Of a DNA stretch of 64,000 nt, positions 3,657-49,962 are shown in pieces. The DNA is from Candidatus Omnitrophota bacterium. GTDB lineage: Bacteria > Omnitrophota > Gorgyraeia > Gygaellales > Profunditerraquicolaceae. Location: the NCBI GenBank assembly GCA_023227985.1, contig JALOCB010000002.1:10956-74955 (forward strand). Direction: 5' to 3'. Made by a program: the position numbers and the translations under genes. The notes beneath the pieces are model-generated. The model did not search any database, was not told where the DNA came from, and saw nothing but the letters and a program-made list of their open reading frames with translations. Every line of letters starts with the position of its first letter. The first letter of the stretch is position 1.

Positions 3657-4697
3657 ATGAAGATAATTGTTGATGCTATGGGCGGCGACTATGCCTCTGA
3701 TGTGGTGGTTGACGGAGCGATAGCCGCGGTTAAAGAATATCAGGTAGGGGTTGTCCTGGTCGGAGATGAAGCAAAGATACGCATGCGTATCAGAAAAATG
3801 AAGTTCGATTCCAAGCTTCTTTCGGTATATCCCGCATCCGAAGTCATTGAAATGCATGATTCTCCGGCTACCAGCGTCAGGAGGAAGCGTAATTCTTCTA
3901 TTGTGCTGGGCCTGAAATTGGTGCGCGACGGCCAGGGGGACGCGTTTTTCAGCGCCGGAAATACCGGGGCTGTTGTTTGCGCGTCCACGTTGACTTTAGG
4001 GATGCTGCCCGGCATCGAGCGGCCGGGTATCGCTACGTTAATGCCCAGCCTGAAAGGCGTTTCCCTGATTATCGACGTAGGGGCGAATATTGACCCTAAA
4101 CCCTTGCATATTTTGCAGTACGCGGTAATGGCAGATGCCTATGCACGTTATATCCTGCATAATCCCAATCCCAGGGTAGGCCTCTTGAACGTGGGCGAGG
4201 AGGAAAGCAAAGGGACCGTGCTTCTCAAGGATATCCATGAATCGTTATCCAAGACCCATCTGAATTTTATCGGCAACGTTGAAGGCAGGCATTTGTTCTC
4301 CGGAGATTGCGACATTATTGTCTGCGACGGGTTCGTGGGCAATGTCGCGTTAAAGGTTACGGAAAGCCTGGCTGAGGCGATGCAGATCTCTCTGAAAAAG
4401 CATATTTTTAGCAATCCCCTTGGTATTATCGGAGGCTTGCTTTTGCGGTCGAGCTTCAGGGCGTTTAAAAAAGAGATAGATTATTCTGAATACGGCGGGG
4501 CGCCTCTTTTAGGCGTCAACGGAGTATCGATAATCGGCCACGGCAGGTCGAATGCCAAAGCGATCAAGAACGCGATCCGGGTGGCCAAGGAGGAAGTGGA
4601 GAACAGGTTCAACGAGAAGGTCTTGGAGGCGATAAATTTGGAAGGATTGGTTCAAACTAAAGAAAATAACCCTCAAGTTGCGCCGTTAGACAAGTAA
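3657..4697 (+). CDS. plsX: phosphate acyltransferase PlsX
   Basis: 346 aa; MKIIVDAMGGD start and rpmF-plsX-fabH synteny. Confidence 0.9.
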   Translation: MKIIVDAMGGDYASDVVVDGAIAAVKEYQVGVVLVGDEAKIRMRIRKMKFDSKLLSVYPASEVIEMHDSPATSVRRKRNSSIVLGLKLVRDGQGDAFFSAGNTGAVVCASTLTLGMLPGIERPGIATLMPSLKGVSLIIDVGANIDPKPLHILQYAVMADAYARYILHNPNPRVGLLNVGEEESKGTVLLKDIHESLSKTHLNFIGNVEGRHLFSGDCDIIVCDGFVGNVALKVTESLAEAMQISLKKHIFSNPLGIIGGLLLRSSFRAFKKEIDYSEYGGAPLLGVNGVSIIGHGRSNAKAIKNAIRVAKEEVENRFNEKVLEAINLEGLVQTKENNPQVAPLDK

Positions 4698-4718
4698 TCC
4701 TTTAACAGAAAGAACTCA

Positions 4719-5696
4719 ATGAAAAAAGTAGGCGTATTGGGATTAGGGAAATACATACCGGAGAAGGTCCTGACCAACGCAGACCTGGAAAAGATGGTCG
4801 ACACCTCCGATGAATGGATCACTACCCGCACCGGCATTAAAGAGCGACATATAGCCGCTAAAGATGAAGCTACCAGCGACCTGGCCACTAAAGCCGCCAG
4901 GCAGGCTTTGAAAGCTGCTTCCCTGGAGCCACAGGATCTGGATATGATAATAGTGGCTACGGTTACTCCGGATATGCAGTTTCCGTCTACGGCTACTTTT
5001 GTCCAGGCGAATCTTGGGGCAAAGAAGGCTTTTTGTTTTGATATCTCGGCGGCCTGCGCGGGGTTCATTTACGGGATAACCATTGCCCAGCAGTTTATCG
5101 CCCGCGGAACGGTCAAGAACGCGCTGGTCATCGGCGCGGAGACCCTTACCCGGATAACCGATTGGCAGGACCGGAATACCTGCGTTCTTTTCGGGGACGG
5201 CGCCGGCGCAATGGTCCTGGGGGAGAGCACAGGTTCCGAGATCCTTTCGGCTTATCTGGGTTCAGACGGGTCCAACACGGGGTTGTTGAATATGCCGGGC
5301 GGAGGCTCGCGTAATCCGGCTACAGCCCAGACCGTTCAGGACAGGCTGCATTACATCAAGATGGACGGAAATGCGCTTTTTAAGATCGCGGTCACCAGTA
5401 TGGCTGACGCCGCGTTAATGGCTCTGAAAAACGCCGGGCTTAAATGCGCGGAAGTGAATTGGATCATCCCGCATCAGGCTAATCTGAGGATCATCAACGC
5501 TGTAGCGAAGAGGCTGGGATTCGTCAACGCGCAGGTTTATCTTAATATTGAGAAATACGGGAATATGTCCAGCGCCTGCGTGGCTATAGCTTTATGCGAG
5601 GCTGTCCAGGAAGGCAAGATCAAAAAAGGCGATATTGTGCTTCTGGACGCGTTCGGGGGCGGGTTGGTTTGGGGCGCGGTGATTATTAAGTGGTGA
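4719..5696 (+). CDS. fabH: 3-oxoacyl-ACP synthase III
   Basis: 325 aa; active-site Cys context FDISAACAGF, C-terminal HQAN and GGG motifs. Confidence 0.9.
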   Translation: MKKVGVLGLGKYIPEKVLTNADLEKMVDTSDEWITTRTGIKERHIAAKDEATSDLATKAARQALKAASLEPQDLDMIIVATVTPDMQFPSTATFVQANLGAKKAFCFDISAACAGFIYGITIAQQFIARGTVKNALVIGAETLTRITDWQDRNTCVLFGDGAGAMVLGESTGSEILSAYLGSDGSNTGLLNMPGGGSRNPATAQTVQDRLHYIKMDGNALFKIAVTSMADAALMALKNAGLKCAEVNWIIPHQANLRIINAVAKRLGFVNAQVYLNIEKYGNMSSACVAIALCEAVQEGKIKKGDIVLLDAFGGGLVWGAVIIKW

Positions 5697-5721
5697 TCTA
5701 AACTAAAACATAAAGGGTTCG

Positions 5722-6636
5722 ATGGATAAATACGGATTTTTATTCGCAGGCCAGGGAAGCCAGTATGTCGGAATGGGCAAGGATCTATGCGAGGCTTTTC
5801 CTGAAAGTAAAGCGGTGTTTGAAAAGGCGGAAGAGACCCTGGGTTTGGATCTCAGAAAGTTGTGCTTTGACGGACCGGAAGCCAGTCTTAAGCCGACGAA
5901 TGTTTCCCAGCCGGCTATTGTCAGCGTGACCCTGGCGGCTTTCGAGGCGTTCCAAGCCCAACACAACATAAAACCCGCTTTTGCCGCCGGCCTTAGCCTG
6001 GGTGAGTATTCCGCTTTGATCGCTTTGCGCGCTTTTGAGTTCAAGAACGGCATGAAATTGATCCATAAAAGAGGCCGGATAATGGAAGAGGCTGCCCAAA
6101 AAAGGCCCGGCAAGATGGTGGTTATACTGGATCTTTCTATGGACAGGGTCAGGGATATATGCAGAAAAACCGAGTCTGAAATAGCCAATCTTAATGCCCC
6201 GGGACAAATCGTTATTTCCGGTTTCGCGGAAAATGTGGAGATGGCAAAGGTGCGTTGCCTGGCCGCCGGAGCTAAGAAAGCCATTGACCTGCCGGTAAGC
6301 GGGGGATTTCATTCCCTTTTGATGTTCGAGGCATCGGGCGCGTTAAAGAAAATCTTGGACGATCTGCCTATGTTTATGCCTAAAGCTCCGGTTATCAGCA
6401 ATTATACTGCGCTACCTATGTACAGGACCGCGGATATAAAGCTGAATCTGGTTTACCAGATATATTCAGCGGTAAGATGGGAAGAGTCAATGAGATATAT
6501 GCTTAGCCAGGGGGTGACCAAGTTTATCGAATTCGGACCGGGCAAGGTGTTAAGAGGCCTGATGCGCAAGATTGAACCTTCCGCGCAGGTGTTCAACATA
6601 GAAAAAGCCGCGGATATCGCTAATTTTGTCAAATAG
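5722..6636 (+). CDS. fabD: malonyl CoA-ACP transacylase
   Basis: 304 aa; FAGQGSQ and GLSLGEYSA active-site serine motif. Confidence 0.9.
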   Translation: MDKYGFLFAGQGSQYVGMGKDLCEAFPESKAVFEKAEETLGLDLRKLCFDGPEASLKPTNVSQPAIVSVTLAAFEAFQAQHNIKPAFAAGLSLGEYSALIALRAFEFKNGMKLIHKRGRIMEEAAQKRPGKMVVILDLSMDRVRDICRKTESEIANLNAPGQIVISGFAENVEMAKVRCLAAGAKKAIDLPVSGGFHSLLMFEASGALKKILDDLPMFMPKAPVISNYTALPMYRTADIKLNLVYQIYSAVRWEESMRYMLSQGVTKFIEFGPGKVLRGLMRKIEPSAQVFNIEKAADIANFVK

Positions 6637-6658
6637 GAACATTAACGGAGGTAAAATA

Positions 6659-7402
6659 ATGCGTTTAGAAGGGAAAGTGGCTTTGGTTACCGGAGGAGGC
6701 AGAGGCATAGGCAAGGAAATATCCCTGTTATTTGCCAGGGAAGGCGCGGATATCGTGATCTGGGATGTTAATCCTCAGGATGCGGATAATACCTGTAAAG
6801 AGATCGAGGCTTTAGGCAGGAAGACTTTATCCGGGCAGGTGGATGTCACCGATTATGCCAAGGTAGAAGAAGCGGTCAACAAAATTCTTGACAAATTCAA
6901 CAAGATTGATATATTAGTTAACAATGCCGGGATCACTAAAGACAATCTGCTTTTGCGGATGAGCCAGGCAGAATGGGATGCGGTCATAAATGTCAACCTT
7001 AAAGGGACATTTAACTGCACCAAAGCCTGCGCCAGGCCCCTGATAAAGCAGCGCCAGGGTAAGATTGTCAACATTGCATCGATCATTGGGATAATGGGAA
7101 ATGCCGGACAGGCAAACTATGCAGCTTCTAAGGCCGGGATAATCGCCTTGACTAAGACCTCGGCCAGGGAAATGGGAAGCCGGAATATCAATGTCAATGC
7201 CATAGCCCCTGGATTTATCCAGACGGCTATGACCGACAAGCTTCCCGAAGAAATAAAACAGAAGATGCTGGCTAACATTCCCTTAGGTAAGTTAGGGACC
7301 CCTAAGGATGTGGCTAATGCCTGTTTATTCCTGGCCTCGGAGGAGGCGCATTATATAACAGGACAGACCATAGTAGTGGATGGCGGAATGGTGATGGTAT
7401 AA
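6659..7402 (+). CDS. fabG: 3-oxoacyl-ACP reductase FabG
   Basis: SDR with TGGGRGIG Rossmann motif and NAG, YAASKAG catalytic motifs; start moved to ATG 6659 with GGAGG SD, after the fabD stop. Confidence 0.9.
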
Positions 7403-7490
7403 TCGGCGGTTTACAACATATCCCCGCTGTTTCGCGGCGCGCAGCGCAAAGCGAAAACAGGTTCTGGGGATCATTCAAGGAGGAAATAGA

Positions 7491-7730
7491 ATGGCAGTTG
7501 AAGAGAAAGTAAAAGCTATAATCGCAGAACAACTTGGCGTAAAACCGGAGGAAGTTACCGCAGAGGCGTCGTTCGTGGATGACCTGGGCGCTGATTCCCT
7601 GGATACCGTAGAGCTGGTTATGGCTTTTGAAGAGGAATTCGGTATCGAGATCCCGGATGAGGATGCGGAAAAGATCACCACTGTGAACGAGGCGATTAAA
7701 TACATCGACGAAAAAACTGCTAATAAATAA
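7491..7730 (+). CDS. acpP: acyl carrier protein
   Basis: 79 aa; [21 protein letters not shown] phosphopantetheine attachment serine motif. Confidence 0.92.
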
Positions 7731-7761
7731 TATAATGCCGTATTTTGCAGGTTGAATACTA

Positions 7762-7796
7762 CCCCGCCATTTTCACTAGGCGGGGTAAGTTTTAAT
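7762..7796 (+). terminator. hairpin attenuator/terminator between acpP and fabF
   Basis: CCCCGCC-N10-GGCGGGG stem followed by aagTTTTaa. Confidence 0.5.
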
Positions 7797-7829
7797 AAAC
7801 CAATTAATAATTCATTCAGGTAAAGGATA

Positions 7830-9080
7830 ATGAAGAGCCAGGAAAATAGAGTTGTGGTAACGGGTTTAGGCGTAGTTTCGCCTTTGGGCAACGATATTTC
7901 TTCTTTCTGGAGCAGCCTTCAGGCCGGAAAATCGGGGGTGGGTCAGCTTACCACGTTCGATGCCTCGGGATTTGACTGCCATATCGCCGCCGAGGTCAAG
8001 GGGTTCGACCCGCAGGCCTTTGGCCTGACCAGGAAAGAAGCTATGCGTATGGAGAAATTCGTCCAATACTCGCTGGCCTGCACTAACCAGGCGGTCAAGA
8101 ATTCCGGCCTGGACCTTGAGAAAGTTGACAAGGAGCGCGCGGGCGTTATAGTAGGCTCCGGCATAGGCTCTTTGCGGATCATAGAAGAAGAATATAAGGT
8201 TTATTTAAAAGGCGGCGCTTCGCGCATTTCGCCTTTTCTTATCCCCAGCCTGATAATCAATGAGGCATCCGGGCATATCGCGATAAAATACGGTTTTAAC
8301 GGCCCTAATCTGGCGGTGACCACTGCCTGCGCTTCCGGCTCTCATGCTATAGGTAACGCGGTGCGGATCATCCAGCGCGGCGACGCGGATATTATGATCA
8401 GCGGAGGCACGGAAAGCTGCGTTACTGCTTTAGGTGTCGGCGGTTTTTGCGCGCTTAAGGCCTTATCTGTGCGTAATGACGAACCGGAGAAAGCCAGCCG
8501 GCCGTTCGACGCCCAGCGCACCGGGTTTGTTATGGGTGAAGGCTGCGGCATAGTGATCCTGGAATCACTGGAACACGCCCAAAAAAGAGGGGCGCATATA
8601 TACTGCGAAGTGCCCGGATTCGGCGCTTCCTGCGACGCCTATCATATAACCGCGCCTGACCCTGACGGCCACGGCGCGTCTTTGGCTATAAAATGGGCGT
8701 TAAAAGACAGCGGGCTTAATCCGGAAGATGTGGATTATATAAATGCCCACGGTACATCCACTAAAATGAACGATAAGGTGGAGACCATGGCGATAAAACG
8801 GGCGTTGGGCGACCACGCCAAGAAAGTTATGGTAAGTTCGACCAAGTCGATGACCGGACATTTATTGGGCGCGGCAGGCGGTGTGGAGTTTATAGTTTGC
8901 TGCCTTGCCATAAAAGATAGTGTTGTCCCTCCCACGATCAACTACGAGTTCCCGGACCCGGACTGCGACCTGGATTATGTCCCGAACGCGGCGCGTAAGG
9001 CCGAGGTCGATGTCTGCATCTCAAATTCCCTCGGATTCGGCGGGCATAACGCTACCCTGGTTGCCAAGAGATTCAAATAA
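7830..9080 (+). CDS. fabF: 3-oxoacyl-ACP synthase II
   Basis: 416 aa KAS II; active-site Cys (TTACASG), His-His (AHGTST, GHLLGAAG) motifs. Confidence 0.9.
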   Translation: MKSQENRVVVTGLGVVSPLGNDISSFWSSLQAGKSGVGQLTTFDASGFDCHIAAEVKGFDPQAFGLTRKEAMRMEKFVQYSLACTNQAVKNSGLDLEKVDKERAGVIVGSGIGSLRIIEEEYKVYLKGGASRISPFLIPSLIINEASGHIAIKYGFNGPNLAVTTACASGSHAIGNAVRIIQRGDADIMISGGTESCVTALGVGGFCALKALSVRNDEPEKASRPFDAQRTGFVMGEGCGIVILESLEHAQKRGAHIYCEVPGFGASCDAYHITAPDPDGHGASLAIKWALKDSGLNPEDVDYINAHGTSTKMNDKVETMAIKRALGDHAKKVMVSSTKSMTGHLLGAAGGVEFIVCCLAIKDSVVPPTINYEFPDPDCDLDYVPNAARKAEVDVCISNSLGFGGHNATLVAKRFK

Positions 9081-9103
9081 AATAAGTTTAAGATAATAGG
9101 ATT

Positions 9104-10408
9104 ATGGCGCATACAATAGCGGAAAAAATATTATTGGCCCATACGGGCCTTGCCTACCGGCAGGCAGGCAAGAAGGATATCCGCCCGGGCGAATTCATCG
9201 AGGCTGATGTGGACGTGGCTTTAGGAAATGATATCACCGCGCCTATCGCCATTTCGGAATTCAAGAAAGCCGGATTTACCAGGGTCTTCGATAAGAATAA
9301 GATCGTCCTGGTTCCCGACCATTTCGCCCCGGCAAAAGACCTGAAAAGCGCCAATCAGTGCAAGGCGTTGGCTAATTTCGCCGAGGAACAGAAGATCAAG
9401 AATTATTTTGAAGTGGGGTGCATGGGCATAGAGCACGCGTTGCTTCCGGAAAAAGGCATAGTCCTGCCCGGGATGCTGGTCATCGGCGCGGATTCGCATA
9501 CCTGCACTTACGGCGCCTTAGGCTGTTATTCCACCGGTTTAGGCTCTACTGACCTGGCCAGGGCTTTTGTGGACGGTAAATGCTGGTTCAAGGTCCCGGA
9601 GAGCATAAAGTTCATATATAAAGGAAAGCCGAATAAATGGATCTCGGGAAAAGACCTGATCCTTTATACTATCGGCCGGATCGGGGTTGACGGGGCTTTG
9701 TATTGCGCGATGGAATTTACCGGCCCGGTGATCAAAAAGCTGCCGATGGATGGCCGGTTCTCTATGTCTAATATGGCGATCGAGGCGGGAGCCAGGGCAG
9801 GGATAATCGAAACGGATGAGACTACGCTGGATTATGTAAGATCGACCGGAAAGAAGATCGGCTCTGATTTGAGGAAGAAGTGGCTTAGCCTTAAGGCTGA
9901 TCCGGACGCGGCATATCAAAAAGTATATGAATGGGATGTTACGGGCCTTAAGCCGCAGGTGGCTTGCCCGCATCTTCCCAGCAATGTAAAACCCGCGGCT
10001 GAACTGGGCAATGTCAAGCTTGATCAGGTGGTCATCGGTTCCTGCACCAACGGCAGGATCTCGGACCTGCGGATAGCCGCCAAGATATTAAAAGGCAAGA
10101 AGGTTGCCCCGGGATTGCGCTTGATCGTCATCCCGGCGACCCAGAAGATATACCGGGAATGCCTTAAAGAAGGCCTGGCTAAAATTTTCATCAAGTCCGG
10201 AGGGGTATTCTCCACTCCGACCTGCGGCCCGTGCCTGGGCGGACATATCGGTATACTTACAGAAGGCGAGACCTGCCTGGCTACCACCAACAGGAATTTT
10301 ATCGGCAGGATGGGGTCGCCTAAATCATTCGTTTATTTGTCCAGCCCGGCAGTAGCCGCGGTTTCGGCGATCACCGGAAGGATCACTGATCCTAACGAGG
10401 TTATATGA
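9104..10408 (+). CDS. leuC: 3-isopropylmalate/homoaconitate dehydratase large subunit (aconitase family, short LeuC type)
   Basis: 434 aa aconitase catalytic domain with Cys ligands (GSCTNGR, TCGPCLG); overlaps leuD. Confidence 0.85.
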
Positions 10409-24689: not shown

Positions 24690-24982
24690 CCGGTAAATTA
24701 CGTCTATTATATATAGAGAACCAATCCAATTGGAGGCATTGGAATGCAGGATTATCGGCACCCAACCTAAATCATCCGCCATATAAGAATGGCGGGTGTG
24801 TCGCTATTTACGCCAGGAAAGGTTGGTGTCGCAACCGTATGTTAAACCCGATCTTATTGGCGCCTGCCATTTTTGGATATGGCAGCATACGCTTTTGCGT
24901 TAATAGATCGGTGTTGCATCCGTATATTACACCCGATCTTATTGGATAGATCGGTGTTGCATCCGTATGCAAGGGGGGGGGT
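24690..24982 (+). repeat. cluster of family A palindromic units in the divergent GGDEF/recA intergenic region, ending in TGCATCCGTATGCAAGG + G9 tract
   Basis: CCGCCATATAAGAATGGCGG palindrome; two copies of AGATCGGTGTTGCATCCGTAT and CACCCGATCTTATTGG; G-homopolymer 24973-24981. Confidence 0.6.
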
Positions 24983-26127: not shown

Positions 26128-26175
26128 GGGAAGGGTGTTGTGTAACTTGTTGCCACCCTGCGCAGATCGGTTTTG

Positions 26176-26297
26176 CGCCGGTGTTGACTAGGTAGTCACA
26201 CCCAATTTGATTGGTAAGGTTGGTGTTGGGCAAGTAATGCACACCCGGCGCCAATGGGAATTGCGCCGGTGTTGCATTCGTATGCAAGGAGGGTTGG
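26176..26297 (+). repeat. family A palindromic units ending in TGCATTCGTATGCA hairpin + AGGAGGgttGGAGG SD directly upstream of htrA
   Basis: CACACCCGGCGC-caatgggaatt-GCGCCGGTGTTG then GCATtcgtATGCAAGGAGGG, ATG 26301; additional ACACCCAA...TTGGTGTTG unit upstream. Confidence 0.65.
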
Positions 26298-32815: not shown

Positions 32816-32949
32816 TTAAGTCAGCGGAGGCTGTGTCACAAAGCGAGTTCCGCAGGCCGAAGGGCCGTACCGGACGTTCCTATAAATCCGGGTGCAGGCC
32901 GGGAGGCCGAGGATTGTTCGAGCGACGGACACAGCCGCAGATGACTTAA
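32816..32949 (-). repeat. family B MITE-like element (inverted orientation), hisB-hisH spacer
   Basis: TIRs TTAAGTCAGCGGAGGCTGTGTC ... GACACAGCCGCAGATGACTTAA; internal sequence is the reverse complement of the 45713 and 46924 copies. Confidence 0.7.
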
Positions 32950-45693: not shown

Positions 45694-45712
45694 TTTTACG
45701 TTAATCGAGGCG

Positions 45713-45885
45713 TTAAGTCAGTGAGGACTGTGTCAGTCGCTCGAACAGTCCTCGACCTTCCGGCCTGCACCCGGGCGTATGGCACCTCGCCATATAGGAG
45801 TGGCGAGTATGTCGCTTTCTGCGTCAGAACGTCCGGTGTGGCCCTGTGGCCAACGAAACTCGCTTTGTGACACAGCCCGCACTGC
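45713..45885 (+). repeat. family B MITE-like element (long copy, ~173 bp) with a nested family A-like insert, followed by a T-run; DUF190-SPFH spacer
   Basis: TTAAGTCAGTGAGGACTGTGTCA...TGACACAGCCCGCACTG; internal CACCCGGGCGTATGGCACCTCGCCATATAGGAGTGGCGA resembles family A units. Confidence 0.7.
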
Positions 45886-46016: not shown

Positions 46017-46820
46017 ATGGAACAGCGGGATACAATTAATTTTGCGATAAATTGGTTGATCAAAACCGGGGTCTTTGTCGTGGCTTTAGTAATCTTCTTT
46101 GGAAGTTTTTATGTAATAGGCGTCGGCCAGGTAGGCGTAATATTTAATCAGGCTACGGGGCAGACTAAATCGGTTCAATCGGGGTTCAACTTGAAAATGC
46201 CGGTCATTGAACAGCTCAGTGTATTTGATATCAGAACGCAGCGGATCGATATAGTGGAAGATTGCGCTTCCAAAGATCTGCAGCTGGTTAGGATGAAAAC
46301 CGTAATAAACTACCATCTTGATTATACCAAAGTAAATGAAATATTCACAAAAGTAGGCAGGGATTATACGGATAAGATCATCATCCCTATAACCAATGAG
46401 ATCGCCAAGTCTTTAGTATCTCAATACACTGTGGAGAATATTATTGTAAAGCGCGCGGAATTGAAAGATGCTATTGAAGTGGCCTTGCGTGTAAAATTAG
46501 GCGAGTATTTTATCGTAATCGAGAGTGTTAATTTAGTGAATGTGGATTTCACCCCGGAATTCAACCGGATAGTTGAGGCGAAACAGATCGAAGAGCAGAA
46601 GATCAAAACAGCTGAGTATAAGAAGATGCAGGCCGCTCAAAACAAAGAAGCGGTTATTTTAGAAGCCGAGGGGGAATCCAAACGGCAGGAATTGATCAAG
46701 GCAACGGTTAATCCGCAGATCGTTTCTTTGGAATGGATCAAAAAATGGGATGGCAAGCTCCCGGTCACTATGTTAGGGGATAAAACAGTAATGATGGTTA
46801 ATCAGGATGAAAACAAATAA
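46017..46820 (+). CDS. SPFH/band 7 (prohibitin-like) membrane protein
   Basis: 267 aa; N-terminal TM, SPFH core (GQVGVIFN...), C-terminal coiled-coil; own promoter-like site and AGGAGG SD. Confidence 0.75.
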   Translation: MEQRDTINFAINWLIKTGVFVVALVIFFGSFYVIGVGQVGVIFNQATGQTKSVQSGFNLKMPVIEQLSVFDIRTQRIDIVEDCASKDLQLVRMKTVINYHLDYTKVNEIFTKVGRDYTDKIIIPITNEIAKSLVSQYTVENIIVKRAELKDAIEVALRVKLGEYFIVIESVNLVNVDFTPEFNRIVEAKQIEEQKIKTAEYKKMQAAQNKEAVILEAEGESKRQELIKATVNPQIVSLEWIKKWDGKLPVTMLGDKTVMMVNQDENK

Positions 46821-46843
46821 AGCTTTTTAAGCAGATCCCAAAA

Positions 46844-46874
46844 GGGCTGGACTTGATCGTCCAGCCCTTTTTTA
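46844..46874 (+). terminator. rho-independent terminator after the SPFH gene
   Basis: GGGCTGGAC-ttgatc-GTCCAGCCC followed by TTTTTTATT. Confidence 0.75.
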
Positions 46875-46923
46875 TTACTGATTTTGCGGGTCCTGGCCTG
46901 CCGGCAGGCAGGCTGTCGAGCCG

Positions 46924-47008
46924 TTAAGTTAGTGAGGCCTGTGTCAGTCGCTCGGACAGTCCTCGGCCTTTGGCCTGCGGAACTCGCTTTGTGACACAGC
47001 CCTCACAT
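46924..47008 (+). repeat. family B MITE-like element (short ~85 bp copy), just upstream of the HicAB islet
   Basis: TTAAGTTAGTGAGGCCTGTGTCAGTCGCTCGGACAGTCCTCGGCC...GGAACTCGCTTTGTGACACAGCCCTCAC; matches the ends and core of the 45713 copy, lacks its middle segment. Confidence 0.7.
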
Positions 47009-47135
47009 GTATTTGCCGAAAATCTCCTGATTGTGCGCTCCAGCAAACCCGCAAGGCTAATCTTGTTATCTTGATTTTTTTGTGTTTCACTAAACAGGAT
47101 GAAAACAAAAATTTTACTTGACAGTGATACCGGAT

Positions 47136-47190
47136 ATGGTACCATAAATTTCGATATGGACTTGAAAAATGGTTCCAGATATGGTATCAT
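47136..47190 (+). promoter_or_regulatory. candidate HicB operator: palindromes ATGGTACCAT (47136-47145) and ATGGTATCAT (47181-47190) within GATATGGTAYCAT direct repeats in the hicA promoter region
   Basis: Perfect 10-bp palindrome plus a near-copy about 45 bp apart, downstream of TTGACA 47118 and 16 nt upstream of hicA ATG. Confidence 0.5.
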
Positions 47191-47205
47191 TGTGATGGAG
47201 AGAAG

Positions 47206-47466
47206 ATGCCGGATATCTTCAAAATTTATGAAAAGGCTTGTGCTTCTTCGAATAATCTTTCTTTTCTAGAGTTATGTAACTTAGTAGAAGGAGCGGGTTT
47301 CGTTTTTGATAGGCAGAAAGGTACATCGCATAAGATTTACAAGCATCCATTAATACGGGATAGGATAGATGCAATGGTTAATATACAAGATGTACATGGC
47401 AAAGCTAAAAGCTGGCAAGTGAAAGTAGTCTTAGATTTGATCGAAAAATACGGCTTAATAAAATAA
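47206..47466 (+). CDS. hicA: HicA-like toxin (type II TA mRNA interferase), N-terminally extended
   Basis: 86 aa; DRQKGTSHKIYKHP matches HicA GSHxxxxHP core; AT-rich; first gene of the pair as in hicAB. Confidence 0.55.
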   Translation: MPDIFKIYEKACASSNNLSFLELCNLVEGAGFVFDRQKGTSHKIYKHPLIRDRIDAMVNIQDVHGKAKSWQVKVVLDLIEKYGLIK

Positions 47467-47493
47467 TAAAGAATAAAAAAGGGGGCGGGCGCC

Positions 47494-48006
47494 ATGGGGA
47501 AATATTCAATTAATATTGTTTGGAGTGATGAGGATGCTGGATTCATTGCTACTATCCCTGAATTTAAGAATTTGTCAGCTTTTGGAAATACTTATGAAGA
47601 GGCTCTGAAAGAAGCTGAAACTGTTCTAGAAGGCTATATTGAATCTCTGAAAGCCGAGAATGTACCCTTACCAGAACCACACAAGATATCAGAATATAGT
47701 GGACAAACTCGTTTAAGAATGCCACGTGATTTACATCAGGCAATAGCGTTAGGAGCGCAAAGACAAGGGGTGTCCCAAAATACTTATATGGTAATGCTTC
47801 TTTCAATGAATTATACGATTAATTCCATGTTGCCAATAATTGAACACGCAGGAGAACATATATTTATAACTCGTGTAAGTTCCCGGGGCGTTGATAATGA
47901 CAAAACATATTATAACCCGCTAGTAGCTCATCGGAATAATTTAGTAACAAATGATAATACAATTGAAGTCAAAGGGTTGAATAATATTGTGAGAGGTGAT
48001 TTATGA
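47494..48006 (+). CDS. hicB: HicB-like antitoxin (HicB N-terminal RNase-H-fold domain + RHH-like DNA-binding segment, C-terminal extension)
   Basis: 170 aa; KYSINIVWSDEDAGFIATIPEFKNLSAFGNTYEEALKEAETVLEGYIESL matches UPF0150/HicB; RLRMPRDLHQAIALGAQRQG RHH-like. Confidence 0.6.
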   Translation: MGKYSINIVWSDEDAGFIATIPEFKNLSAFGNTYEEALKEAETVLEGYIESLKAENVPLPEPHKISEYSGQTRLRMPRDLHQAIALGAQRQGVSQNTYMVMLLSMNYTINSMLPIIEHAGEHIFITRVSSRGVDNDKTYYNPLVAHRNNLVTNDNTIEVKGLNNIVRGDL

Positions 48007-48398
48007 TTAAAAATATTTGGACGGTGTTAGCATCTAATATTATAACTGATAAAGAAACAAATATGGTAAGTTATGTTAATTGTATTGAAATAGTTATAAC
48101 TAAAGGTTTACCAGCGAAAATGCCAACTATTGGTATTGGCACTCTTTGGGAAAAAGAAACTGATCAAGATAATTCCTTAATGGTTAAAATAACATTAATT
48201 TCGCCCTCGGGGAAAATCAAAGATGTTTTTAAAACCGACAGTATACCTTTACCAGTTCGCCGACATCGGTTAAACATAATTGCTGGTAATTTGGTAGCTG
48301 AAGAAGAAGGTGAATATAAGATTCGAGTCGAGGTTATGGGTTTGGATAAATGGATTATTGCGAATGAAGTTCCATTTGTTGTTACGGTAAGAAAATAA
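48003..48398 (+). CDS. hypothetical protein, translationally coupled to hicB (no recognisable domain)
   Basis: 131 aa ORF overlapping hicB stop by ATGA; AT-rich codon usage like hicAB; no motif recognised. Confidence 0.4.
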   Translation: MIKNIWTVLASNIITDKETNMVSYVNCIEIVITKGLPAKMPTIGIGTLWEKETDQDNSLMVKITLISPSGKIKDVFKTDSIPLPVRRHRLNIIAGNLVAEEEGEYKIRVEVMGLDKWIIANEVPFVVTVRK

Positions 48399-48722
48399 AA
48401 GACAATAAGTAGAGTAATTAAATAATTAGCTAATTTGGAATGCCAATAAAAGAATTTGGCGGGAGTGCGAGCGAATGGAGATTTTAGCCAAAGCAGCTTG
48501 AGTATTTTGGGTATCCCGGCGGAGCGTAGCGACAACACCGGGACAGCGAGGATGTTAAGGAGCATTTGTTAGAATAAATGCGACGAGTTCCGCAACTGCC
48601 AAAATGCGAAAGACCTTTGGCGGCTCGATAGGGTAAAATCGACTTTGAGCGAACAACCCGGCAAATTCATTAAAATACCTTCCTATATCCGCTATCCGCA
48701 AAGCCGCAAGACCAGAAAATCT

Positions 48723-48751
48723 TTTGACAAATTAGCCAATTTCGTATATAT
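48723..48751 (+). promoter_or_regulatory. sigma70-like promoter for pgk (TTGACA-17-TATATT)
   Basis: TTGACA 48723-48728, TATATT 48746-48751, GGAGGA SD before ATG 48779. Confidence 0.6.
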
Positions 48752-48778
48752 TAATACTTTCTAATACTGGAGGAAAAG

Positions 48779-49962
48779 ATGGCAAAATTGACTGTAAAAG
48801 ACCTGGATTTGAAGAACAAAACTGTATTAATGAGAGCGGATTTTAATGTTCCGCTGGACGCTAACCTCAACATTACTGACGATACCCGCATCCGCGAAAC
48901 TTTACCCACGATCAAGTTTATCCTTGAAAAAGGCGCAAAAAAGCTCGTTCTGATGAGCCATTTAGGCAGGCCGGACGGCAAAAGAGTGGATAAATACAGC
49001 TTGAAACCGGTAGCAGCCAAGCTGGAAGAATTACTCAAAGAAAAAGTAAATTTCCTGAATGATTGCGTTGGCCCGGAAGTCAAGGCCGGAGTGATCAATT
49101 CTAAGGAAAGGATTGTCCTTTTAGAGAACCTTAGATATCACGCAGAAGAAGAGGGCAATAACGCGGATTTCAGCCAGCAGTTAGCCGCATTAGGCGAAGT
49201 TTTCGTTAATGACGCCTTTGGCACAGCGCACCGCGCTCACGCTTCCACAGCCGGAGTGACAGATTCCTTAAATCCGCCGCTGGTTTCCTGCTGGAAAAAG
49301 AGATCAAATATTTAGGCGACGCGGTAAGCAATCCCCAGAAGCCTTTTATGGTCATCCTGGGCGGGGCTAAAGTTTCCGATAAGATCGGGGTTATTGAGAA
49401 TTTACTGCCAAAATGCGAGGCTATTATCATCGGCGGCGGCATGGCTTATACCTTCCTGAAAGCCCAGGGCAAGGCTATCGGTAATTCCAAATTAGAGAAA
49501 GACAAGCTGGACCTGGCTAAATCCATCCTGGATAAAGCCGGCTCTTTGAAGAAAGAGATCGTTCTGCCGGTGGATCATGTGGTAGTTGAGACTGTGGACG
49601 CCAACGCCAAGTTCGAGATCACCTTGACAGACGCGATCCCTGATGGAAAGATCGCAGTGGATATCGGCCCGAAAACCATAGAATTGTTCAATTCCAAATT
49701 AAGCACGGCAAAAACCATTGTCTGGAATGGCCCGCTGGGTATCTTTGAGATGGACGCGTTCAGCAAAGGCACCTCTGAAGTAGGCAAATGCCTGGCAGGG
49801 CTTAAGGCAGTCACTATTATTGGCGGCGGTGATACCGCGGCCGCAGTGGCTAAATTCAAATTACAGGATAAGATGACCCATATTTCCACGGGCGGCGGAG
49901 CAAGCCTGGAATTCTTAGAGGGCAAGAATCTTCCCGGGATCGAGGCATTAACTGATAAATAA
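48779..49962 (+). pseudogene. pgk: phosphoglycerate kinase, interrupted by an apparent single-nucleotide deletion (frameshift near 49262-49267); could be a sequencing artefact
   Basis: ORF 48779-49315 ends ...[23 protein letters not shown]. The -1 frame reads [42 protein letters not shown] and continues into ORF 49348-49962. Canonical Pgk needs GVTD-FLKS, i.e. gatTtcc where the sequence has gattcc. Confidence 0.8.

Follow-up and report, generated by a model that had tools for sequence, protein, structure and literature searches.

The window analysed here, a stretch of 64,000 nt from contig JALOCB010000002.1 of a Candidatus Omnitrophota bacterium, contains at 47091–48398 an islet of three genes on the plus strand, namely a hicA-like toxin gene, a hicB-like antitoxin gene and a third gene encoding a divergent member of the DUF6941 family. 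This is the lowest-GC stretch of the window, its GC content being 34.8% while the window averages 49.7% (standard deviation 3.0 for segments of 1308 nt), in line with the sharp drop at 47.1–48.7 kb described in an earlier, sequence-only reading of the same DNA. The GC content at third codon positions (GC3) amounts to 23–32% in the three islet genes versus 49–52% in the SPFH gene and pgk, and the surroundings consist of a long run of plus-strand housekeeping genes. With this compositional signature of low GC and GC3, the islet represents a self-contained operon of three genes, hicA–hicB–DUF6941, that was acquired by horizontal transfer.

The first gene (47206–47466, plus strand) encodes a HicA-like protein of 86 amino acids containing the stretch GTSHKIYKHP. 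It matches the Pfam family HicA_toxin (PF07927) with 27.0 bits (E = 4.8e-6), exactly on the gathering cut-off of 27, as well as phrog_353, annotated as 'toxin' (E = 2.6e-5). PF07927 is also matched by six of the seven HicA orthologues from related loci (best E = 4.7e-11), so that the HicA-like character proposed in the sequence-only reading was upheld. In the alignment of HicA-like proteins (A4) the residues G39, S41 and H42 are invariant, and these we take to be the GSH motif of HicA with its catalytic histidine. The subfamily is divergent, having a conserved N-terminal extension of about 20 amino acids. Searches of PADLOC and NCBIfam gave nothing useful for HicA, HicB or the third protein. 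The A4 profile also matched residues 54–110 of the LAGLIDADG homing endonuclease I-CreI with E = 0.016–0.03 (3.5e-5 for a tandem single-chain variant), outscoring the solved HicA chains (E = 0.5–0.9), but this likeness is probably a chance or analogous α-β-β-α resemblance.

The toxin gene is followed, after a gap of 27 nt, by hicB (47494–48006, plus strand; 170 amino acids), the product of which is composed of a core and a C-terminal tail. The core (47494–47817) comprises a UPF0150/HicB-like N-terminal domain (residues 1–65) and a ribbon-helix-helix (RHH) DNA-binding domain (residues ~68–108), and the tail (47818–48006) covers the remaining 62 amino acids (residues 109–170), which is the domain order that had been read from the sequence, including a tail of about 60 residues. 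The Pfam family HicB (PF05534) is matched with 30.5 bits (cut-off 21), UPF0150 (PF21748; 26.1 bits) and HicB_lk (PF15919; 25.6 bits) are matched slightly under their cut-offs, and further matches were obtained with phrog_497 'HicB-like' (E = 9e-10) and with the PDB chains 6G1C and 6G1N (E = 0.002). Comparison of 26 long HicB proteins demonstrated a mean pairwise identity of 65% for the N-terminal domain and RHH core and of 14% for the tail, the length of which ranges from 44 to 68 amino acids. Most of these tails contain one stretch of 5–7 aliphatic or aromatic residues followed by polar ones; this stretch reads HIFITRV in the window protein and HLFIAYV, KFFVLYK, IIVYYI or VFMVYL in others. 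At locus L014 a deletion of 12 amino acids was seen within the hicB tail.

The third gene (48003–48398, plus strand; 131 amino acids) overlaps the end of hicB by ATGA, its Shine-Dalgarno sequence (GAGGTGAT) being located inside the last hicB codons, and is translationally coupled to hicB via this overlap. The length of its product and the overlap had been recognized in the sequence-only reading, but the statement that the protein belongs to no recognisable family could not be maintained, since it is a divergent DUF6941 protein (PF22091), even though its score of 19.9 bits (E = 0.001) lies under the gathering cut-off of 27. A word-indexed search yielded two homologues, both 56% identical; an exhaustive profile search built from the window protein and these two homologues yielded 640 cluster representatives at E ≤ 1e-3, 164 of them at E ≤ 1e-10, nearly all being 130–150 amino acids long and matched end to end. 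PF22091 was recovered for 101 of 120 aligned relatives (best E = 1.8e-12), and the same family is given in neighbour-gene tables for the orthologues in loci L003, L005, L006, L007 and L029. The family comprises about 640 clusters at 50% identity, and the genome records sampled are mostly those of uncultivated organisms, including Omnitrophota, Aminicenantes, Chloroflexota, a bacterium of the Candidate Phyla Radiation (CPR) and Deltaproteobacteria.

The AlphaFold2 model of the third protein, calculated with the 120-relative alignment, is an all-β sandwich of nine strands with a mean predicted local distance difference test score (pLDDT) of 97.2. Positions conserved throughout the family are D16, S23, P37, W49, P68, R89 (in an R-H-R motif), G103 and W117. 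A Foldseek search of the PDB with the model found only generic immunoglobulin-like sandwiches with template modelling (TM) scores of 0.45–0.62 and E of ~1e-4, namely UNC119, PDE6-delta, RhoGDI, the Fn3-like domain of GH3 enzymes and the Wzt carbohydrate-binding domain; SecB was not among the best 50 matches, and a profile search of PDB chains with the family revealed nothing significant. Within BFVD the fold is matched best by uncharacterised phage proteins (TM scores of 0.70–0.75), among them, with lengths of 134–164 amino acids, A0A2H4JCJ7, A0A2P1JU14 (Anoxybacillus phage A403) and A0A8S5TTK3. No member of DUF6941 was detected by tblastn in the phage and plasmid collections, nor by alignment A1 in viral contigs, and PADLOC contained no match to the family; phrog_5881 was matched by four of the 120 family members. 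Longer family members were also inspected for Rosetta-stone fusions of DUF6941 with an antitoxin domain, none of which was convincing; one protein (P0114) carries an N-terminal extension of 74 amino acids. No paper mentioning DUF6941 was found in the literature searched.

Two sigma-70-like promoter sites precede hicA on the plus strand, both with TG before the −10 hexamer: P1 at 47118–47145 (TTGACA, 16 nt, TACCAT) and P2 at 47162–47190 (TTGAAA, 17 nt, TATCAT). The architecture of P1 is also present in loci L001, L003, L006 and L027, and P2 is kept in the same four loci as well as in L028. Each site contains a candidate operator unit of 20 bp consisting of two 8-bp boxes spaced 12 bp from start to start, the second of which overlaps the −10 hexamer. 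Unit 1 (47125–47144, plus strand) has the sequence TGATACCG-GATA-TGGTACCA and unit 2 (47170–47189, plus strand) the sequence TGGTTCCA-GATA-TGGTATCA. As proposed in the sequence-only reading, palindromes lie here within direct repeats: ATGGTACCAT at 47136–47145 and ATGGTATCAT at 47181–47190 are both enclosed in a 21-nt direct repeat (47125–47145 and 47170–47190) with 81% identity. Three of the ten matches to TGGTWYCA in the whole 64 kb fall within 53 nt at the hicA promoter. Boxes with the consensus TGGTWCCA-N4-TGGTAYCA were found upstream of hicA in the window and in eight other loci (L001, L003, L006, L007, L008, L017, L027 and L028), in two of which (L008 and L017) the position of unit 2 is occupied by TGGTACCA-AATA-TGGTACCA. 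Since the boxes are kept in loci the proteins of which are only 34–67% identical, the DNA motif is under selection, and pairs of short palindromes spaced by roughly one turn of the helix would represent the kind of site expected for an RHH repressor. An ORF of 56 amino acids lying over the promoter (47099–47269) has no family match and was treated as spurious.

The order hicA, long hicB and DUF6941 was also observed in loci L001, L003 (with a second contig, L004), L006 (the contig of which is also that of L018), L007 and L029, in the locus of protein P0065, in L008 on an Aminicenantes chromosome and in L014–L017. It should be borne in mind that the loci sampled are few and that the way of collection introduced some bias, the narrow A1 patterns favouring proteins with an MIKHIWT-like N-terminus. 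Incomplete modules are represented by L005, from another Omnitrophica metagenome-assembled genome (MAG), in which hicA has a premature stop, and by L002, which ends at the contig end. The hosts are Omnitrophica genomes, Aminicenantes genomes and unbinned metagenome contigs, and the flanking genes vary from locus to locus. In L005, for example, the neighbours are nifU and a gene for an amino-acid permease, whereas genes for a PIN-domain protein and for type I HsdR flank the module of L006 and one for a PD-(D/E)XK protein that of L007. In the three-gene arrays the distance from the antitoxin stop to the DUF6941 start is −8 to +20 nt, with the exception of L015 (112 nt), where hicB is frameshifted. 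Over eight HicB-linked loci, the Spearman coefficient between the pairwise identities of DUF6941 and of the HicB core is 0.83, compared with 0.80 for HicA and the HicB core, the pairs being non-independent; DUF6941 thus tracks the HicB core as closely as HicA does, and the three genes have therefore been inherited as a unit. The array hicA–hicB(long)–DUF6941 is a recurrent toxin-antitoxin architecture, and a non-canonical one, as the sequence-only reading had suspected from the single locus. A literature search for HicAB systems with a third gene other than SecB found no description of one.

The tail of HicB goes together with the third gene. Among the loci found through HicB homology, DUF6941 is located downstream of all five long-tailed HicBs and of none of the eight short ones (Fisher's test, ~8e-4 by our own estimate). 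The HicB relatives on viral contigs, from two-gene systems, are shorter and have no tail of this kind, with ORFs of 69, 63, 114, 114 and 105 amino acids and one of 161 amino acids (L042), the HicB-like part of which was read as ~120 amino acids; two of them (L039 and L040) stop right after the RHH domain, and no DUF6941 gene was found downstream of these viral-contig HicBs. The two short proteins among the close homologues, P0009 and P0011, come from decayed loci in which hicA carries a frameshift or is deleted and no more than a remnant of DUF6941, if any, is left. Decay of this kind was seen in L027 and L028, where, besides a frameshift or partial deletion in hicA, both the hicB tail and DUF6941 have been lost.

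In four non-redundant loci a gene of 53–68 amino acids for an HTH_17 (excisionase/AlpA-like) protein, MEKLLT...YKLPKG..., lies directly upstream of hicA (L001 21–221; L003 3426–3626; L005 1652–1813, 53 amino acids by ORF call; L006 3415–3621). The gene is absent from the window. It may indicate that the module rides on a small integrative element, or it may be a fourth, regulatory gene.

DUF6941 genes were also found behind pairs other than HicAB. In loci L012, L019, L020, L021, L022, L023 and L024 the gene follows a Gp49-family (HigB-type) toxin and an XRE-type helix-turn-helix (XRE-HTH) antitoxin of 140–154 amino acids, and in L030 it follows an HTH_3 (XRE-HTH) protein of 228 amino acids, the gene further upstream being cut off by the contig end. 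A DUF2283 protein of 135 amino acids precedes it in L011, and in L010 (4312–5468) and L025 (1949–2991) it is preceded by a CHAP/DUF7689-like protein of 170 amino acids and a protein of 185–213 amino acids without a family match, which may together form an undescribed toxin-antitoxin-like pair. Behind the DNA-binding or antitoxin domain of the XRE-HTH and DUF2283 proteins another 50–90 residues follow before the stop (~140 in L030), and the partner protein in L010 and L025 is long and has no recognisable domain. The tail of the DUF2283 antitoxin (L011 5591–5998) contains an internal tandem duplication (...TTAGSSLGRPIQTFVTTVSGTAGSSLGRPIQTEVV...), which suggests rapid remodelling of the region proposed below to contact DUF6941. 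With near-identical loci collapsed, three-gene arrays account for 19 of 21 non-redundant loci (ten with HicB, six with XRE-HTH, one with DUF2283 and two with the CHAP-like pair), and for 13 of 15 in the subset that was not collected through HicB. The DUF6941 sequences cluster by partner type, with one apparent swap of partners, the HicB-linked protein of L029 and the XRE-linked one of L030 being mutual closest relatives (37% identity).

Upstream of the islet lies an SPFH/prohibitin gene (46017–46820, plus strand; Band_7, E = 4e-30) with a terminator hairpin at 46840–46871. Both are native up to ~46880, because an 86%-identical relative, L032, has the same gene end and hairpin before the sequences diverge. 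The islet adjoins an inverted-repeat-bounded copy of the family B repeat at 46916–47006, and its start right after such a repeat, as noted earlier, was thus seen again; other copies are found at 45705–45882 and, on the minus strand, at 32829–32949. The repeat resembles a small miniature inverted-repeat transposable element (MITE) or repetitive extragenic palindromic (REP)-like element with the terminal inverted repeats GTGAGGnCTGTGTCA ... TGACACAGCCCnCAC, and the copy beside the islet has an internal deletion of ~90 nt. The left edge of the islet (47091–47109) is a 19-nt copy, with 18 of 19 positions identical, of the stretch in which the SPFH gene ends (46799–46817), the chance expectation for such a match being 0.19 (with up to three mismatches). 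The last SPFH codons are thus repeated right in front of the hicA promoter, with the native terminator and the family B copy lying between the two halves of this direct repeat, which may have been left behind by recombination or integration. No third copy, which might have served as a right-hand att site, was found within the window. In L032, the closest SPFH relative on a long contig and the one relative compared as a check for an empty site, the SPFH gene has other neighbours, upstream as well as downstream. What comes after it there (4357–9224) is not pgk but a response regulator gene and then an HTH gene accompanied by a restriction-modification system resembling type III (N6_N4_Mtase and ResIII). 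The region downstream of the SPFH gene may be a variable hotspot in the lineage.

Downstream of the islet, the segment 48399–48778 gave no match to Rfam and contained no tRNA. About 320 bp of degenerate repeat remnants had been proposed here, but blastn of this segment against the window gave a best E of 0.02, and with no significant repeat present that proposal was dropped. The promoter of pgk (TTGACA-17-TATATT) is located at 48724–48752. The pgk gene itself (48779–49962) is split into ORFs of 178 and 204 amino acids by a frameshift near 49265–49285, where by eye one A seems to be absent from a short A run (ttaaatccgcc versus the frame-keeping ttaaaatccgcc); this is either an assembly error of the MAG or a genuine frameshift in an essential gene. 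Elsewhere in the window two pairs of direct repeats of 41–53 nt, 85–88 nt apart and 74–85% identical, were seen at 24820–24945 and 26134–26274, one of them containing GGTGTTG...CGCCGGTGTTG; they are unrelated to the islet.

The HicAB part of the operon belongs to the known HicAB kind. It shares with type II HicAB systems (PF07927 and PF05534; Burkholderia pseudomallei 6G26) the toxin gene in first position, the GSH residues of HicA, the combination of a UPF0150/partial RNase H-like domain with an RHH domain in HicB and the palindromic promoter boxes. It differs from them in the N-terminal extension of HicA and its weak match to solved HicA structures, in the additional tail of 44–68 residues on HicB and in the obligatorily linked third gene. 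The third protein agrees with DUF6941 of Pfam in length and all-β architecture, although it differs from typical members in scoring below the gathering cut-off. In other tripartite modules, such as pasABC, paaR-paaA-parE, omega-epsilon-zeta and HipBST, a third protein modulates the toxin-antitoxin pair, acting as a transcriptional regulator, as a split toxin or antitoxin domain or as an enhancer; we know of no relationship between these and DUF6941. Three-part toxin-antitoxin-chaperone (TAC) systems are, to our knowledge, so far known only with SecB-like chaperones.

In the published TAC systems, which combine SecB with HigBA and HicAB families (PMC5105189; bioRxiv 10.1101/2024.02.24.581848), the third gene of the operon encodes a SecB-like protein that binds the C-terminal chaperone addiction domain (ChAD) of the HigA, MqsA or HicB antitoxin, an extension that is not conserved and tends to aggregate (PMC5105189). 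Compared with Mtb (Mycobacterium tuberculosis) HigBA1-SecB(TA), Methylomonas methanica HicAB-SecB, E. coli HigBAC and CmdTAC, the present operon has the same order of toxin, antitoxin and third gene, the same tight coupling and the same non-conserved C-terminal extension of the antitoxin, and in both cases one third component is shared by several toxin-antitoxin families, including HicAB and HigBA-type pairs. In contrast, the DUF6941 protein is an all-β sandwich of 130–150 amino acids that resembles SecB neither in sequence nor in fold, and the DUF2283 and CHAP/DUF7689-like partners are not among the TAC families named in PMC5105189 and bioRxiv 10.1101/2024.02.24.581848. As the third protein is no SecB homologue, the operon is not a TAC system in the family sense; by analogy, it plausibly works like one.

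DUF6941 is an integral part of the hicA–hicB module, and with a probability of roughly one half it binds the antitoxin tail and controls antitoxin stability, in a manner analogous to TAC systems. According to this reading, HicA would, as expected from its family, be an mRNA-cleaving toxin that is neutralised by the N-terminal domain of HicB, and the RHH domain of HicB would repress the two tandem promoters by binding the paired 8-bp palindromic boxes over the −10 hexamers. DUF6941 would bind the fast-evolving tail, probably at its short hydrophobic strand, by β-strand addition, and this contact would control the solubility or stability of HicB, so that the amount of available DUF6941 would govern the release of the toxin; DUF6941 itself might be titrated by stress or by a phage protein. 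Several observations weigh against this reading. The window HicA is a borderline Pfam match, and its subfamily profile reaches the HicA chains of the PDB with just the E-values given above; DUF6941 is not SecB-like, SecB in Pfam having no match in the window protein or its 120 relatives. In L015 the tail is truncated by a frameshift with hicA and DUF6941 intact, and the Aminicenantes tails (L008 and L016) are without an obvious hydrophobic strand. DUF6941 also stands alone in two of the 21 loci, L009 (Solidesulfovibrio alcoholivorans) and L013, and the family may therefore have a role independent of toxin-antitoxin pairs.

These solo genes would also fit an ordinary two-gene HicAB system that shares its small mobile islets with an unrelated passenger gene, as would the HTH_17/Xis-like gene before the module in several loci, which suggests cargo of a mobile element. 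This explanation is strongly disfavoured, since DUF6941 comes directly behind the antitoxin gene on the same strand in 19 of 21 loci, often with an overlap, is found with four unrelated types of antitoxin, co-evolves with HicB and co-occurs with the tail. That the third ORF is merely a chance frame in AT-rich DNA, as low GC favours long chance ORFs and an antisense ORF of 133 amino acids overlaps it, is refuted by 640 homologous representatives, a pLDDT of 97, conserved synteny and a strong Shine-Dalgarno sequence before its start; lack of conservation had been named in the sequence-only reading as what would speak against the gene, and the ORF, being conserved and syntenic, is a real gene.

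A DUF6941 protein that belongs to the module without being a chaperone may instead act as a second effector, as a toxin modulator neutralised by the tail or as an adaptor delivering the antitoxin to a protease. The eight positions conserved across the family could mark an active or binding site, and the fast evolution of both the third component and the tail fits a conflict interface as well, but no catalytic family or fold match was found for DUF6941, and L027 and L028 have lost hicA together with the tail and DUF6941. For an independent toxin such joint loss is harder to account for than for a protein in the service of the toxin-antitoxin pair, and a non-chaperone role of this kind is considered unlikely. 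A further possibility, which refines the stability-control reading and is still more doubtful, is that DUF6941 mainly senses phage or stress proteins within an abortive-infection defence module, with stabilisation of the antitoxin as its resting state. The SecB-like chaperone of TAC systems doubles as a phage sensor (bioRxiv 10.1101/2024.02.24.581848), the modules of L006 and L007 lie beside the PIN-domain, type I HsdR and PD-(D/E)XK proteins mentioned above, and phage proteins share the DUF6941 fold. On the other hand, the family is absent from PADLOC, has no match in phage and plasmid collections or viral contigs, and at the window locus stands among housekeeping genes.

Extended to the other partners, the reading of DUF6941 as a binder of antitoxin tails leads to a second, SecB-independent class of toxin-antitoxin-'chaperone' modules, put forward here tentatively and at somewhat less than even odds. 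DUF6941 would have been recruited repeatedly by unrelated type II pairs (HicAB, Gp49/XRE, DUF2283 and CHAP-like) via fast-evolving antitoxin tails; it would serve as the stability switch that decides on toxin release and might in this capacity also sense phage or stress. For annotation, a long-tailed HicB or XRE antitoxin followed by PF22091 represents a distinct three-gene architecture. If the proposal is true, the 'addiction' of antitoxins to a helper protein would have evolved more than once, and again via non-conserved tails on the same kinds of pairs; a domain of unknown function, DUF6941, would gain a function, and its association with the antitoxin tails would constitute a new modular pair of tail and binder.

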